Both the position numbers and the translations under genes were made by a program. From assembly GCA_051294375.1 (NCBI GenBank), contig CM119271.1, forward strand, positions 15,878,770-15,942,769: a stretch of DNA of 64,000 bases, read 5' to 3'. This document shows, in pieces, positions 5,039 to 48,794 of the stretch (position 1 is the stretch's first letter; each line of letters begins with the position of its first letter). Source of the DNA: Paraspadella gotoi. Lineage: Eukaryota; Animalia; Chaetognatha. The notes beneath the pieces were generated by a model. The model searched no databases. It was not told the origin of the DNA and saw nothing but the letters and a program-made list of their open reading frames with translations.

Positions 5039-7809
5039 ATGTGTGAAAACGTGAGCGAAGATTTTCGGCCGAGCATGACTCAGGACGAGTTCCTGGCGCA
5101 GTTGCGTTCGGCCGGATTCACTGAGAAGACGATCGCGGCGCTTGGTGACGAAGACATCAACAGCGACGCCGCGCTCAGGATTCTATCGGTGAGGACTTTA
5201 AAAACAGTTAAACTTAATTTGTAAACTTTCATTTGCACGTTGTAGAAAGTATAGTCGTGTTCGTTCTACAGCCTTTTGATAGAAAACTTGATGGGATTCG
5301 AATCGATTTTGAGAATGAATTAATGAATTCGGTCATCTGCTTTGGTTACTAATGGTAGGCGTTTTGCTTTAATTAGTTTTAAATAGTTTTAATTAGTTTT
5401 AAATAGTCTTAGAGCTACAGTTAGAAAAATCATCCCATCGAACGCCCTCTCCTCATGGGTCATCAGGTATCGGACATTGAGACTCTGGCCAAAGAGAAGC
5501 AACTCAGCATCGGACAGAAACGACTCCTCATCGAATTCGCAGCCAAACTAAATCCTAAGAAGAAGGAAGAGGAAGCCTTTCCCACGAGGTAAGGGCCAGG
5601 GTGAGGACTTGTTCGAAAGAGATTCTTTCTCTCACATTGAAAATGGAAAAGAAAATATATAATAGATAAAGAAAATCTACAATGAAGCGAAAGATGGAAC
5701 AAAGAGAAAAAGAAAAATGAATTGATAATTTGTAAATATGAAAATTAAAAAAAGGAACGGGAAAACAAACGCAAGAGAATTCGAATTTTAAAGAAACTTT
5801 TGACGAATTTGCAAAAAATTGCGGGAAGAAAGAAGTTCGCTGGAAGGAATGAAGAACTTACAAGGAATTGTTGCAACGAAAAAAATTGAAAGAAATTAAT
5901 CACTGAAAGAAAGAATTTGCTGAAAGAAGTTGGTTTAATTAGTAAATTACTGAAATTCTACCTTAATTTCTAAAAGAAGTTAATTGTTGAGATCAAAATA
6001 TTTGTAAAGAAAAATAAATTAATGAAACAAACAAAAAATACGGAACAAAAAAAAATCGGAGCGAAATTGAAATTGAAAAAGAAGTTGTTTTTCCCCGAAT
6101 GCAACAGAAAGAGAGAGAATAAAAACCAAATCCGAAAGAAATCGTGAAACCAAAGTAGGAGAAACTCAAGAAAAGAATCGCTGCCGAACAATTTTTTAAA
6201 AATCAAAACTAGAAAAAAATTTGAAACTGTTGGAATAAAAGAGAAAGGAAATTGAGAATGGAGAACGGAGAACGGCAATTTGCAATAAAAGAAAAAAAAT
6301 TAATAAAATTAATAAAAGAGAAACAAAATTGAGAATGGAGAACCACAATTTGCAATAAAAGAAAGAAAATTAATAAAAGAGAAACGAAATTGAAAATGGA
6401 GAACCGCAATTTGCAACAAAAGAAAGAAAATTAATAAAAGAGAAATGAAATTGAGAATGGAGAACCGCAATTTGCAATAAAAGAAAGAAAATTAAAAAGT
6501 AAAGACAAAGAAATTCGTGAATCCTGAAAGAAACCACTCTCAAGAATGTGTTTAACTGTGAATTAACGAATCGATGAACGATTGGACTTCTCTTCATAAA
6601 CAGCGTGACCGTCGCGTTCGACTTAGCATCACCTCAAACTCGGGTCGAGCTACTCCTCTCAGGTGGTCAGCTACAAAGCCTCACTTTTAATGCCTAAAGG
6701 TTCGCCCGCTTTAACTCTCAAACGCGAGTCGACGCTTACTCGCAACCAAAAATCGAACGTGAGTGATTATAGCGCGCCAAGACGCTTCGGAGATTCGATG
6801 ATACGTATTTACAAAAGTCTCGTAGTATTTACATTTTGTATTTGTATTTGTTTAAATACCTTGGTTTTTAATGATATAATTTCCAGGAGCGCTTACAGCA
6901 AAGGCGGAAACCGCTCCGCTCCTTTCCCGCCGTCGGCTACTCGTGGCGGCTACAATCGAAAAAGGATGCAAGGTGAAAATAAAGGATTTGTGCACAAATT
7001 GTGGTGGTATATTCACACCACCTCACGTCCACGATCGTTAAGCCAATACCATTGGCACAGAGGGGGAACACGCCATCCCAGGCGGAGTGTTCCATCCACA
7101 GTCCTAACAACTTCCCTCTGCGTTGGCAAAGCGTGACCGTCCTAGGTAAACCGCGCCAGTGACTGGAGGCGTCACTGAGGGTCGGAAGCCCCCAAGGTCA
7201 CAGACTGATGGTATGTGGACTGCAGAGATAACAATATATTTTGACTAAACCTCAACTGATGCCAGAAAAGAAATATAGTATTAATAGCAGTACAATGAAG
7301 AATGCAGTTCCGATTGAAGATTAAAATGATCTTACAGAGCGATTGAATCCCGCGGAGTCGAACTGCGTCTGCGTCTTTAATCTTTCGCCTTCGACACAAG
7401 AATTCACCATCTACGATTTTTTCAGTCGCCTCGGTTACGTCAAGGACGTCAAGATCGTTTACGACAGGTGGCGACGCTCGTTGCAGTTGCGATTGCGATG
7501 GGAGTCAATGTCAAACTATTCACGAGACATTCCTCTTTCAGGTCGACGGGTTGTTCCCGTGGATTCGCCTTTGTTCACTTCGCCGACGTCGCCACCGCCA
7601 AATACGCCAAGGAGACGGGACAAGGGATGTTGATCGACGGGCAGCAGGTCAGAAATTTTCTTGTAGAGGCTCATAATAATCTTTTCCAAGCATTGATCGA
7701 TCGATCGATCAATATTTGTCCTCATCTCCAGATTCGCATCGATTTCTCCTTAACGAAGCGCGGTTACTCGCCGACGGGACACCAAGGAAAATCCTCTGCC
7801 CCGTATTGA
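5039..7809 (+). CDS. Divergent Transformer-2-like RRM protein, possibly with an N-terminal SAM-like helical domain; middle exon linkage uncertain
   Basis: 3' exons give NPAESNCVCVFNLS...IVYDRSTGCSRGFAFVHF...IDGQQIRIDFSLTKRGYSPT, matching the Tra2 RRM and linker. 5' exons 5039-5188 and 5468-5588 give LRSAGFTEKTIAALGDEDINSDAALRILSVSDIETLAKEKQLSIGQKRLL. Confidence 0.6.
6230..6500. repeat. Intronic tandem repeat, ~60-bp unit
   Basis: Repeated aattgagaatggagaaccgcaatttgcaataaaagaaagaaaattaataaaagagaaa units. Confidence 0.8.
7000..7295 (+). mobile_element. Probable solo LTR of a tRNA/twister TRIM family in an intron of the Tra2-like gene (3' end approximate)
   Basis: Starts TGTGGTGG..CACCACC like the 46424 LTR; A/B-box-like tggcacagaggg / gtgttccatcc; shares gccagtgac..ggaggc(g)gtcactgagggtc with the 44061 LTR. 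Confidence 0.55.
7123..7195 (+). ncRNA. Twister ribozyme-like fold, type P5 permutation
   Basis: TTG..GCGT-GACCG-TCCTAGG-TAA-ACCGC-GC-[CAGTGAC/GTCACTG]-A-GGG-TCGGAAGC-CCC-CAA; pseudoknot CCG(7137-39)/CGG(7183-85); predicted cleavage T7147^A7148. Confidence 0.7.
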
Positions 7810-19751: not shown

Positions 19752-38160
<18,409 letters not shown>

Positions 38161-43717: not shown

Positions 43718-44184
43718 GTCATTTTTGTCAACGAGAATTCTTTATTTTCAAGATAAGATTTGATTCATTTGAAAAAAAAAATGGATCCATTCTTTTTCCT
43801 TTTTTTTTTTTCGTGCGTTGTGCCCATTGCCTTTAATCATTTGATTGTTTTGTAATGAACACTTTTTGAGTGGATTTGTTTATTTTGCTGAACTTAATAC
43901 AAGTTATATATGCGCAAGAATATATTTGGGTTTTTTGTTCGATCGCCCCGTCAACCATTTTTGAAAGTATTTGAAACGGTTGTGAATGATAATGTGATCT
44001 CTCGAATGTACGATCATTCGTTTTAGCGGAATTCACAATCTCAAAACTAATTTATAAGCGTGTGGCAGCAAGACTTAAAGCTGCCTCACTGCTGTCCGTC
44101 CTCAGCCTCGTCTCAATGGCTGAGCAGGCTAAATCATCTCATTCCATCCGTGCGTCCCGGGTTCAATCCCTGGGTATCCCGGTT

Positions 44185-44268
44185 CTGGCTTAAATGTGAC
44201 GGTGCGCGGTATATAAACATGCCAGTGACAGGAGGCGGTCACTGAGGGTCGCGCAGCCCCTACGCCAG
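44185..44268 (+). ncRNA. Twister ribozyme-like fold in LTR1
   Basis: Same architecture as the LTR2 copy, with small indels (L4 TCGCGCAGC); TAA at 44214-44216. Confidence 0.6.
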
Positions 44269-44666
44269 TTAGTGAGATACCCCGCGCCCCGGGTATCACA
44301 GGCTATCCCCCGTTGCCATAAGTGGTGAGCCCTACTATCGAACACGCAACCGCTGCGCACCGTGCGCCCACGCTTACGTCGCTTAGGGTATGCATATCAC
44401 GCCTATGCCCTACTTCTCTGGTAACGCTCCAGACTCGCTCGCTCGCTCGCCCGCTCGCTCTCACTATGGCAATGAGATCAAAACCTTCTCTCAGACATCT
44501 CCTCAGGATTGAGGCCCTGTGGAGAGGTCTGGTGGGGGATCCTGTGGCAGCAAGACTTAAAGCTGCCTCACTGCTGTCCGTCCTCAGCCTCGTCTCAATG
44601 GCTGAGCAGGCTAAATCATCTCATTCCATCCGTGCGTCCCGGGTTCAATCCCTGGTTATCCCGGTT

Positions 44667-44746
44667 CTGGCTTAAATGTGACGGTGCCGGTATAAACATG
44701 CCAGTGACAGGAGGCGGTCACTGAGGGTCCGCAGCCCCTACGCCAG
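44667..44746 (+). ncRNA. Twister ribozyme-like fold (type P5) in LTR2
   Basis: P5 CTGGC/GCCAG; P2 ATGT/ACAT; GA-CGG 44680-84; TAA 44693-95; GC; P3 CAGTGAC/GTCACTG; P4 AGGG/CCCT; L4 TCCGCAGC 44728-35. Confidence 0.78.
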
Positions 44747-45150
44747 TTAGTGAGATACCCCGCGCCCCGGGTATCACAGGCTATCCTCCCGTTGCCATAA
44801 GCGCCCCGTTTGGTGCGGTCCATTTTAGTAATTTGATATAGTTGATTCATGGATGCGTTAATACAGGGCGCACCCATTCCTTAAAAAAGAGTGGCACCGA
44901 TTGTTCGACCCCAATTTGTAAGCTGATCCCGGTGATCCCCAGTTCCCCGATCACCCTGTTCCCCGTCCCGAGCGGACTCCAGTTTTCTTTGCGTTTCTTT
45001 AATTTTTGTTTTAAATTCCGACATTTAGTAATTAGAGAGGAAAAAATGATAATTCACTCTCAACGGTTGCGCCTTTGAATCTGACCTCGTTTCTATCATC
45101 GATCCATCATACATAAGATATTGAAATATCATTTATCCATCATTATAACT

Positions 45151-48003
45151 ATGTTCGAGACGAACGAGAAGCGAAGCGACGGGCGAGTCTTCGTGGTGAC
45201 GGGAGCCAATCGCGGCCTCGGATTTGAAGCCACGCGCCGATTGGCTAAAATCGCCGACGACGACAACGACGTCGTCTATCTTTGCTCCCGATCGGTTTAC
45301 AGAGGAGAAGACGCCGTCGAGGCGTTGGAGGCGGAAGGATTGAAGGCGACATTTCATCAACTCGACGTTGAAGACGACGAAAGCGTGAGATGGTACGGAT
45401 ACTCTCTTTCTCTCTTACTCTTTCTCTCTCTCTCTTACTCTTTCTCTCTCTATCTCTCTCTCTCTCTCTCTCTCATTTTGAATCGTTTTTCTACAAGGTT
45501 GGCCTGGGATTTGCGGCATCGTCACGGCGGCGTCGACATCCTCGTTAATAACGCCGGCGTCGCGTACACTTCGCCCAATCATTTTGAGAACGAGTCTGTC
45601 GTCGAGGTAATTTCGTAAAGATGTATTTATTTAATTTATTACTTATGTCTTAACGTTTTAACTTTCCCTCTTCACCCCCCCTAGCAAGCCGAAAACACGT
45701 TGGCCGTAAATTTCTTCGGGACTCATCGAGTCTGCGAACACCTCTTTCCTTTGTTGCGAAAAAACGCAAGGTGAGTTTGAGAGAGACAGACAAACAGGGA
45801 GACAGAGACGGACAAGAAGACAGAGAGGGGGACAGACAGAGACAGAGATAGAAAAAAAAGATAATGTTAGGTGAGGTGGTGCCCGAGACCCTGACTACCC
45901 TACCCACCCCCTTTTTTTCAGAGTTGTGAACGTCTCCTCTCAAGCGGGTCACATGGCGTTGGCGCGAATGTCCAACGATCTTCGCTCGAAATTCCTCGAT
46001 CCTCGAATCAGCGAAGAAGTTTTGTTTCAACTCGTGGATGAATTTCTTCAAGTCGTTCGACGCCAAGACGGCGAGAGCAATGGTAAGGAATGGGGGCTTG
46101 ATGTTGCATGATGTGCTAAGGTGGGTGAGGTCGTTAAGAAATTGGTACAAGCAGTATAAAATTATCCATTCATTCAATAAATAAGCTATCTTGTCCCTTA
46201 CTTTGGACTGGCTATGATAGTTTAAGGTTTCATCACACTCTCTCAGTCTTGTTTAACCCTATAAATGTTAAAATTTCAAAATAGTTTTTTATCAGTTTTT
46301 TTTGTAGATTTCGATTTGTTATAAAAAGTTGATTAAAAGAAATTTAACTCTTTTTTAAAAATTCTTACATTAAGTTAGTCAAAAATTAGAAAAACTTATA
46401 TTTTAACTTAAATTTTTGTATATTATGGTGGACTAAAATCCACCAACCGTTCATCAGCGGCATTGGTGCGGAGGCAAGTCATTCGCCTCCCAACCAAAGG
46501 TCCGGGTTCAGCCCGGTGGTCGTCTGGCAGTTAAGAGGGACGGGCGCTTAACCCGCTGTAACTCGTGTTACAAGCCTGATCCGAAGCTCAGGGACTGCTT
46601 ATATTGAACGCTTCTGTCACTATCACATAACAATAATTACTGTCTCTTCATTGGTGAGCCCGACTTCCGAACGACAACACCAACAACACTTTCAGGCGAC
46701 ATGCTCAACTTCGATTGCACTTTCCGCCAAAACATCTAGAGACATGCCTCAACTGGTGACGAACTTTCACAAAACAACAATTCCTGAAGAGACGCAACAG
46801 ACTTCTCCACGGGAGGGGGGGATGTATGTGACTAAAATCCACCAACCGTTCATCAGGCCATTGGTGCCGGAGCAAGTCATTCCGCTCCCAACCCAAAGGT
46901 CCGGGGTCTAGCCGGTGGTCGTCTGGCAGTTAAGAGGGACGGGGCGCTTAACCCGCCTGTAACTCGGTGTTACAGCCTGATCCGAAGCTCAGGGACTGCT
47001 TATATTGAACGTTCTGTCACTATCACATAACAATAATTACTGTCTCTTCAATATTAAATATAGTTTTTTAAAATTTTTAACCTTCTTAATGAAATAATTT
47101 TTTTAAATGAGTTTTTTTTTTTTTTTACTTTTGACGAAGAATTCAAATCTGCCATCAAAATTAAGAAAAGTCCCTTTTGAAATTTTAGGATTTCTTATGG
47201 ATATATATATATAAATATAGCCTAATGCAAAAATTAAAAAATAAAAATTGATTTTTTTTTTTATAAATTAATATTCATTGGTGATACGTTGTTCATAATT
47301 GATAATTAAAACTTTCATTATGCTCTACCCTTGAATGCTTGGACCGATTTTCTTTTAACCTCCACTTATGGATTTCCCATTTCACAATCTATATTTATCA
47401 TTCATAATTTTTTATAATATGTGCGTAAAACGAGCGCAACCTAAGTTTGAAGAGTGTCCTCTTTTTTTTGTACAGGACTGTCAAATAAGTAAGTATATAA
47501 AATAAGCAGTCCCTTCAGTATTTGATGGAAAGCCTTTCGCCTTCTCGTTTTCTCCTCGTCAAATCCCTTTGTCCAGGTTGGCCCTGCACTTACTACGGTG
47601 TCTCCAAACTCGCCGTCACCGTCCTCTCTTCTTTGCAACAACGTCGTTTCGATGCGAGTCCTCAAAATGACGTTCTCGTCAACGCCGGTCAGTTAGAAAC
47701 CTGATATTCATAATGATAAATACTAATAATAATATTGACTCCTTCCCCCCTCCATTCCTAGTCTGTCCCGGTTTCTGCAACACCCGACTCTCCCAAAACC
47801 GCGGTCCCCGCCGTCCCGAAGAGGGCGCCGATGCCATCGTCGCAGCCGCCCTCCTCCTGCCCGAGCGCGCCGCCAACCCGCGCGGTTCCCTCCTCGTCGA
47901 CGGCGCCGTCCGAGTTCCTCTCAACGCCGCTTCGCTTCCGGTCATGGCGCAAACTCGCGCCGCTTCGCCGCCCAAAAGGAATTCAGAGTTTTTCGTCACT
48001 TAA
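45151..48003 (+). CDS. Carbonyl reductase 1-like short-chain dehydrogenase, multi-exon
   Basis: VVTGANRGLG, GGVDILVNNAGV, TLAVNFFGT, RVVNVSS, GWPCTYYGVSK (YxxxK), LVNAVCPGFCNT. Confidence 0.9.
46527..46598 (+). ncRNA. Twister ribozyme-like fold in LTR1
   Basis: GCAGT-TAA-GAGG-GACGG-GCGCT-TAA-CCC-GC-[TGTAAC/GTTACA]..CCTGA-TCCGAAGC-TCAGG-GACTGC. Confidence 0.65.
46926..46999 (+). ncRNA. Twister ribozyme-like fold (type P5) in LTR2
   Basis: P5 GCAGT/ACTGC; GA-CGG 46938-42; TAA 46949-51; GC; P3 CTGTAAC/GTTACAG; P4 CCTGA/TCAGG; L4 TCCGAAGC 46981-88. Confidence 0.72.
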
Positions 48004-48794
48004 ATTTTCTTCTGGGGGGCGAAGCGTCTGAACCTATAATTGGGATCCGTTATCTCGTCGGGCTCACCATTTATGGCGTCACAAAAGGAAGATATAATTT
48101 TAGTAGAAAAAAAAGTATTTGATATTTACTAGGAGTCCTCATTAATGAGGGAGGAGATAAAAAGGGTTGACGATTATCTTAGTCGCTTTAGCCGACAGTG
48201 GCCGTGCTGACCCCACGATCGATAGTCTTGAGTCGCCTAAAATCCAGGCGATGCCCAGAGGAGATCGTGCGCGACCCTCAACGGCCGCCATTGTCTCCTT
48301 TTCAATTCTTTATTCTTTAATCCTCCGCTTTCACTCTCCCTAAGATTTCCTCCTAGTCAACTGCCTTTGCCTCTCTTCTTGTTTTTGCGCTGGGCCTCTT
48401 AGTGCTGAAAATCCTGTTGAAATTCGCGCTGAACCTTATTTATTTATTATAATTTATTTATTATTTAGTCTTGATCGTTTTTTAGCTAGTTTTCTATTGC
48501 GATTTGTTTGTTTATTGCTGATTCTGTCGTTTTCGATCAGCAGAAATTTTTATTAACCTTCGAATTTGATGTGTTAATATTGATCGTTGATTGTAGGATT
48601 TCTTTTAGATAAATAAAATTATGTTTACCAAGAGCGTGACGCCGTGCAAAGCGAAGGTCCCCGCCAAAAAGGGATACTCTTTCGTGAGGTTTTACAAATG
48701 CCCCTACGACTTTCAGTACACGTGAGATAAATCTTGTTATTTTATACAAATATTCTAGTCTAAATATTAATAGATATTTATATTAACGCTCTAG

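Follow-up and report, generated by a model that had tools for sequence, protein, structure and literature searches.

Type-P5 twister-like folds with a palindromic linker in place of P1 in short two-LTR elements, and a plausible dimer mechanism

The window, which is the whole 64-kb stretch of DNA analysed here, contains four type-P5 twister-like folds (at 7135, 44680, 46539 and 46938), recognised by a descriptor that combines T1/T2 complementarity with P2 and P4. These folds are considered to be a real feature, a twister variant in a new kind of host element, and the predicted dimer mechanism is plausible. We put at about one half the probability that a strand-swapped double twister would cut both LTRs of such an element and free a unit of 400-480 nt, which would then be circularised and copied by a Gypsy helper. 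What the folds and the elements are is much firmer than the dimer step. When 100 dinucleotide shuffles of the window were scanned with the descriptor, three single hits were obtained, a mean of 0.03 vs. the four found. A fifth twister copy, at 44198, carries insertions and fails the descriptor. The parts of the downstream fold of the first element, E44, are as follows.

44667..44746, + strand, type-P5 twister fold in the downstream LTR of E44, a descriptor hit
44667-44671 and 44742-44746, + strand, P5
44676-44679 and 44696-44699, + strand, P2
44680-44684, + strand, GA and T1
44685..44692, + strand, P1 reduced to the self-complementary linker TGCCGGTA, whose self-duplex has 6 Watson-Crick and 2 G-U pairs
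44693/44694, + strand, predicted cut
44702-44723, + strand, P3
44724-44727 and 44736-44739, + strand, P4
44728-44735, + strand, L4

The order in these folds is P5-P2'-GA-T1-P1-UAA-P2-GC-P3-P4-L4, with the cut predicted between U and A. The P2, P3, P4 and P5 pairs of the E44 downstream fold are standard throughout; in the second family, E46, the downstream P2 is weak (2 pairs and an A-C mismatch), and the third, E7, has lost the 3' strand of P5 and with it the stem. UAA at the cut, GA and the L4 pattern U-NNN-N-AGC, the conserved core of the type-P5 twister, are present in E44, E46 and E7. The core positions scored are those of the Rfam consensus for the type-P5 twister (RF02684, clan CL00120). 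The T1 pseudoknot is CGG/CCG in E44 and E46 and CCG/CGG in E7, where TCGG in L4 compensates for GACCG, and T2 is GC/GC in all three. Rfam gave no twister match in the window at the gathering score, nor at E up to 10; as a control, seven Twister-P5 matches were returned among 14 loci. The Rfam consensus P1 for Twister-P5 is an 8-bp hairpin with a loop. This usual hairpin is present in none of the four window folds, which have short linkers instead, and Rfam probably misses the folds because the P1 hairpin is absent.

The sequence-only reading had set the twisters in LTRs, and the anatomy of E44 bears this out, with LTRs, a primer site, a purine tract and a 4-bp duplication.

44061..44799, + strand, E44, a non-coding two-LTR mini-retrotransposon of 739 bp, seen as a direct repeat with 482-nt spacing
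44057..44060, + strand, left target-site duplication AGCG, from the sequence; right copy at 44800-44803
44061..44320, + strand, upstream LTR, with twister GACGG at 44198 and TAA at 44214-44216
44323..44332, + strand, primer-binding-site-like TGGTGAGCCC, likely tRNA-Trp by comparison with PMC10886601 Fig. S2
44521..44539, + strand, purine-rich tract preceding the downstream LTR, from the sequence
44543..44799, + strand, downstream LTR, opening with a 5' hairpin common to E46 and E7
44599..44652, + strand, promoter boxes of the RNA polymerase III type, A at 44599-44610 and B at 44642-44652, with the TRGCY and GGTTC words reported for Helenus

The upstream and downstream LTRs differ by 1 substitution and 5 gap columns. 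A duplication of 6 or 7 nt also fits the letters, and 4 bp best matches the TGTGGC..GCCATA ends. The primer site has 1 mismatch to the tRNA-Trp site given for Gypsy-32_NVi and Helenus-2_SyJa in Fig. S2 of PMC10886601. Copies of the A and B boxes lie at 44117 and 44160 in the upstream LTR, and ARAGORN found no tRNA at the boxes. Neither E44 nor E46 has an ORF of at least 120 aa, no hammerhead core word was found in either element, and the 18 window ORFs scanned contained no retroelement domain. A contig from run X10 matches 44565-44748 with 1 differing letter and 0 gaps. A contig from run X9 joins 44053 to 44797, skipping 743 nt (739 + 4) as expected of an empty site; this single weak witness, with a shorter side of 24 letters, points to recent movement of E44. 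Run X9 itself may be RNA. The summed contig depth of run X3 over the LTRs was 442,627 and 1,342,785 vs. approximately 104 in neighbouring unique sequence, and although depth is not copy number, by this measure the elements are high-copy.

The window genes are intron-rich, and the named best matches of a UPRT piece are animals at about 70% identity. Elsewhere in the window, at 21900-33400, a pair of long direct repeats is separated by 10.7 kb; several nested inverted repeats and, at 30538-30562, an N run also occur there, and the ORFs scanned in this region had no Pfam match.

The two further families are laid out as follows.

46424..47050, + strand, E46, second family, about 627 bp, with LTRs at about 46424-46650 and 46823-47050 and flanks ATAT
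46505, + strand, B-box-like word of E46, from the sequence
46652, + strand, primer site of E46, from the sequence
46811-46822, + strand, purine tract of E46, from the sequence
46539..46599, + strand, E46 upstream twister fold, with a 5-nt linker as written
46926..46999, + strand, E46 downstream twister fold, with linker GGCGCT at 46943-46948 and predicted cut at 46949/46950
7000..7225, + strand, E7, a decayed solo-LTR-like copy of the third family, with GACCG at 7135 and linker core CCTAGG at 7141-7146

Loose contig ends fall at the borders of E46 (46422-46424 and 47051). No target duplication was recognised around E7, which shares P3-P4 with E44 over 39 nt at 90% identity. The A and B boxes are clear in E44, represented by the B-box word in E46 and decayed in E7. 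Since all three share the 5' hairpin with compensatory changes, E44, E46 and E7 are homologous. Most contigs read 46964 as A, which makes P3 of the E46 twister one pair longer (window 46960-46975). Another repeat of very high copy number, sharply bounded on its left, occupies 46158-46415 immediately ahead of E46 within a short-chain dehydrogenase gene; E46 may lie within this repeat or next to it. The E46 primer site is matched exactly over 13 nt at 48057-48069 on the - strand; this match was considered as a fourth element and rejected, there being no repeat around it; it lies in an apparent dehydrogenase exon and is taken as a chance match.

If the folds were decayed or inactive remnants, the elements would rely on terminal redundancy and move like any Helenus-type TRIM. 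The lack of an Rfam match even at E up to 10, the weak P2 of E46, the decay of E7 and the damage to the upstream twister copies speak for this. Moreover, by the established mechanism a cut in the upstream LTR would delete the redundancy that ordinary LTR copying requires. However, the catalytic and pseudoknot positions are kept across three diverged families, with a compensatory T1 change in E7, and the empty-site contig points to recent movement. Furthermore, neither full element (E44, E46) contains the four consecutive T that would terminate transcription by polymerase III, so that the ribozyme could supply the end. The A and B boxes stand upstream of the twister fold. Decay of the folds is regarded as improbable.

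The claim that P1 had shrunk to a self-complementary linker is supported by the letters themselves. All three palindromic words named in the sequence-only reading are present, TGCCGGTA in E44 as well as CCTAGG in E7 and GGCGCT in E46, and each is preceded by GA+T1, which reads GACGG or GACCG, and followed by the TAA of its type-P5 fold. It was also correct that no stable hairpin lies between these two points: no linker folds by itself, a forced 2-bp hairpin of the linker at 44685 costs +5.0 kcal/mol, and the self-duplex energies are -10.9, -9.4 and -8.3 kcal/mol. The linker cores, one per family, are CCGG (E44), CTAG (E7) and GCGC (E46); they change between families yet stay palindromic, and the reduction of P1 is seen again in an independent case, the metagenome locus L130. 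A helix of 1-2 bp with a palindromic tetraloop is the format of E44, the E46 downstream copy and L130, and by inference of E7.

The E7 linker is 7 nt as written. A contig from run X10, at a loose end, carries CCTAGGG directly before TAA in the E7 family and suggests a linker of 8 nt centred between CT and AG. With E7 in this register, two linker pairs differ on both sides between the E44 and E7 families, including the central pair, and because a hairpin cannot form the central pair, its covariation counts for two-copy pairing. The upstream twister copies are altered. In that of E44 (44198-44260) the linker is 11 nt long and L4 carries an insertion, and the 5-nt linker of E46 occupies 46544-46548; the partner palindrome is therefore imperfect in the window as written. 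Run X3 depth was 815 at 44203 vs. approximately 440,000 over the downstream E44 twister bin, and only 114 at 46555-46563 in the E46 upstream twister. By this depth the upstream versions look private, through read error or mutation. Several contigs that are 83-87% alike span the downstream twister with 0-1 gaps, which suggests that linker length is kept among copies. Among the variants listed (40 of 257 substitutions and 12 of 135 indels, unphased), none falls at 44685-44692 or 46943-46948.

Metagenome contigs were scanned for short-linker folds. L130 was the sole locus of 72 in which P2 and P4 were fully paired, and its linker, GAGCTC, is a perfect palindrome with the core AGCT. The descriptor matches over the window and loci L001-L251 comprised 211 distinct sequences. 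Thirteen were fully paired: ten with hairpins of 14-30 nt and three with short linkers (E44, L130 and L011). The control set consisted of chance matches that were unpaired and had linkers of even length, 6-12 nt; a palindromic central tetramer was found in 2 of 70, and the background frequency of palindromic tetramers is 4-7%. Palindromic cores in 4 of 5 short-linker folds vs. 2 of 70 controls give p = 6e-5, and p = 0.007 when the window families are counted once (2 of 3), the sample being small. Two loci with a second GAGGG downstream, L084 and L088, were read as type-P1 twisters and excluded from the count of five. In a hairpin of 1-2 bp with a tetraloop the central four bases would be free; selection on the linker for pairing between two copies is therefore likely.

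The L130 fold (630-667) is a single type-P5 twister that follows a pyrimidine tract ending in CAG and precedes a Q-rich ORF by about 60 nt. The L130 ORFs had no Pfam match, and no second twister copy or LTR anatomy was seen within its 1196-nt contig. The remaining short-linker match, L011/L014, is fully paired but not palindromic about its centre. At approximately 560-660, counted in the orientation of the match, these phage contigs (L266 duplicates the L014 contig) contain two head-to-tail type-P1 twisters at 50-nt spacing, neither with an Rfam match; the second is without its own P1 5' strand, and AACGTT lies at the junction, across the base before the cut. Beyond this tandem, no short-linker twister was found in viral contigs, scanned for four variants of T1 and once with a looser pattern (16, 4, 47, 6 and at least 80 loci), in genome contigs (26 loci) or in scans for the type-P3 order (17 and 15 loci). 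Canonical type-P5 twisters present as two copies within a few hundred bases to 1 kb were observed at the phage or bacterial loci L010 (598-663 and 1097-1154), L013, L092 and L093.

Folding predictions were compared for monomer and dimer with programs that leave the two pseudoknots unscored. Unconstrained co-folding of two 85-nt copies of the E44 twister produced the swapped double twister, and the monomer misfolded. With the structures constrained, the dimer at 1 M was the more stable by 11.7-15.1 kcal/mol (E44, E46 and L130), and 3-5 kcal/mol of this advantage remained without the linker pairs. In a 121-nt E44 fragment, pair probabilities in the dimer were 0.73-0.81 for P2 and 0.95 for the linker duplex; in the monomer the probability of P2 was 0.0 and the linker paired with an upstream stretch.

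44659..44665, + strand, stretch predicted to pair with five linker bases in the monomer and so to block P2, at pair probabilities of 0.91-0.97

The linker duplex was not predicted in dimers of a 213-nt E44 LTR fragment or of a 201-nt E46 fragment. When the E44 linker was permuted, the swapped fold was obtained in 137 of 400 cases and was as favourable as the native one in 16 of 400. For L130 the corresponding figures were 5 of 179 and 117 of 179, and native E46 failed the swapped-fold criterion in this control. The sequence-only reading had supposed that the linkers of both LTRs pair on a single transcript, which was not reproduced: the expected number of pairs between the linkers was 0.0 and 0.0 in the native two-LTR transcripts of E44 and E46, as computed with damaged upstream copies and unscored pseudoknots. 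The predicted fold of the released unit is moderately stable (z -2.55, with 2 of 100 shuffles as good).

The strong predicted pairing of the E44 linker with 44659-44665 would also be expected if the twisters cleave as monomers and the linker is a minimal spacer or a conformational switch, its core being palindromic by chance or from pairing nearby. The palindromes come from just four to five lineages, with the three window families homologous, and plant retrozyme RNAs are described as keeping their ribozyme in a blocked form (PMC4918200). Yet four different palindromic tetramers stand against the low frequencies in the control and background sets, and the E46 linker has no equally strong upstream partner (best 0.28-0.42). 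A role as spacer or switch is considered unlikely.

Under the strand-swapped double twister, polymerase III would start in the upstream LTR and read through. The 5' half of one twister (P5, P2', GA+T1) would pair with the 3' half of the other (UAA onward), and both linkers together would form P1 as a shared duplex. Such a dimer must be strand-swapped because a linker duplex in the type-P5 order sets the GA+T1 of one molecule beside the cut site of the other. The nearest partner would be the second LTR of the same transcript, and a separate transcript could serve too. Double cleavage would release approximately 480 nt from E44 (44215-44693) or 400 nt from E46 (46550-46949), the ends of the unit would stay joined for a host ligase, and a Gypsy helper might copy the circle from a tRNA primer, as has been proposed for plant LTR retrozymes. 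Counting against the dimer are the dispensable P1 of other twisters, the lack of a predicted linker duplex in the longer fragments and native transcripts, the mixed permutation control, the alternative partner of the E44 linker in its own LTR, the single copy of L130, the solo look of E7, the non-palindromic L011/L014 and the damaged upstream copies. The further claim, that cleavage is confined to full-length LTR-to-LTR RNA, is more than the evidence supports. With repeats at high copy separate transcripts could pair, P1 is dispensable in other twisters and L130 is partnerless in its contig, all of which makes full-length-only cleavage less likely. More tentatively, and with the balance somewhat against it, these twisters may represent a natural obligate-dimer class, invisible to Rfam and recurring in unrelated mobile elements, that here would arm the first animal LTR retrozymes, driven by polymerase III and cutting only once both LTRs have been transcribed.

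The palindrome might instead be kept for RNA dimerisation, in packaging or template switching by the helper Gypsy, and the twister might cleave as a monomer with a P1 of 1-2 bp and a tetraloop. Retroviruses have palindromic dimer-initiation loops, and both the primer sites and the purine tracts of the elements are of the LTR type. Conservation of the palindromic core as a property is predicted here as well. In addition, P1, which the sequence-only reading had called partly dispensable, is dispensable in published twisters: twisters without P1 are reported to cleave at almost the wild-type rate (PMC5408937), and P1 imperfections were without effect on cleavage in a large screen of the type-P1 twister, the only type tested in it (PMC11662667). 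However, the published constructs with an absent or imperfect P1 have free ends, whereas the window twisters have a short tether. L130 is arranged likewise although its contig showed no LTR anatomy, P2 of the monomer is not predicted to form, and the palindrome lies exactly in P1, in the manner of dimeric hammerheads. Monomer cleavage with a palindrome kept for RNA dimerisation is on the whole doubtful.

In favour of the double twister there is a precedent among hammerheads, to which the sequence-only reading rightly appealed. Axolotl hammerheads with 1-2 bp and a palindromic tetraloop are described as weak as monomers and much better in dimeric constructs, including one with 1 bp, and RtcB closes the units (PMC7229834). 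The window folds resemble the minimal hammerheads that act as dimers in Penelope-like elements and amphibian retrozymes in their shrunken helix and palindromic tetraloop, and in both cases repeats put two copies on a transcript (PMC7229834, PMC6765202). They differ in ribozyme class, and their shrunken helix is P1, which other twisters can dispense with, so that the need for a dimer is less certain. They are like the type-P5 twister of RF02684 in the order of their parts and in both pseudoknots, and unlike it in their palindromic P1 of 6-8 nt and in the missing Rfam match. Intermolecular dimers in one twister crystal were seen as an artefact (PMC5408937). No natural dimeric twister and no twister in an LTR element was found in open-licence PubMed Central full texts and bioRxiv.

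As elements, E44 and E46 are like the Helenus TRIMs and TRIMp3 (PMC10886601), which are short, non-coding, two-LTR elements of animals whose LTRs contain tRNA-type A and B boxes and which have a primer site, a purine tract and a 4-bp duplication. The available text of PMC10886601 names no ribozyme in Helenus, and no twister was seen by eye in the consensus LTRs examined. In most of these LTRs the B box is closely followed by a T-rich stretch that E44 and E46 lack. By eye, two gall-wasp LTRs of that set, Helenus-2_SyJa-LTR and Helenus-2_SyUm-LTR, show hammerhead core words downstream of the B box together with a tRNA-Trp primer site, which the available text of PMC10886601 does not mention; they may be hammerhead counterparts of the present elements.

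The window elements also share with plant LTR retrozymes a ribozyme in each LTR, a 4-bp duplication, a primer site, a purine tract and the lack of an ORF (PMC4918200), the upstream ribozymes here being damaged as written. They are unlike them in having an animal host, a twister rather than a type III hammerhead, an internal polymerase III-type promoter, a tRNA-Trp-like primer site and a shorter unit. LTR retrozymes are still placed mainly in plants, with type III hammerheads, in a 2026 preprint (10.64898/2026.07.22.740005), and for animal ribozyme repeats a primer site and purine tract are given as not found in the available text of PMC4918200. A weak or absent P1 in an animal retroelement is also a trait of the Schistosoma Perere-3 twister variants (PMC8501958). 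In Perere-3 the ribozyme is at the 5' end of the element and the target duplication gives a P1 strand, unlike in the window elements, and the words 'dimer' and 'palindrom' are absent from the available main text of PMC8501958. RTE elements, which are non-LTR retrotransposons, are mentioned with twister variants in PMC7761336.

If the strand-swapped dimer is correct, a second ribozyme class would have reached the dimer solution of the hammerheads. Twisters with short linkers would be invisible to the current Rfam model, and many more may be unannotated. The elements would join Helenus TRIMs and LTR retrozymes, two kinds that were described separately. They would also provide a short construct for asking whether a ribozyme senses the completeness of its transcript. 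Finally, if the dimer is obligate, cleavage only after both LTRs have been transcribed would hand a pre-closed unit to the ligase.
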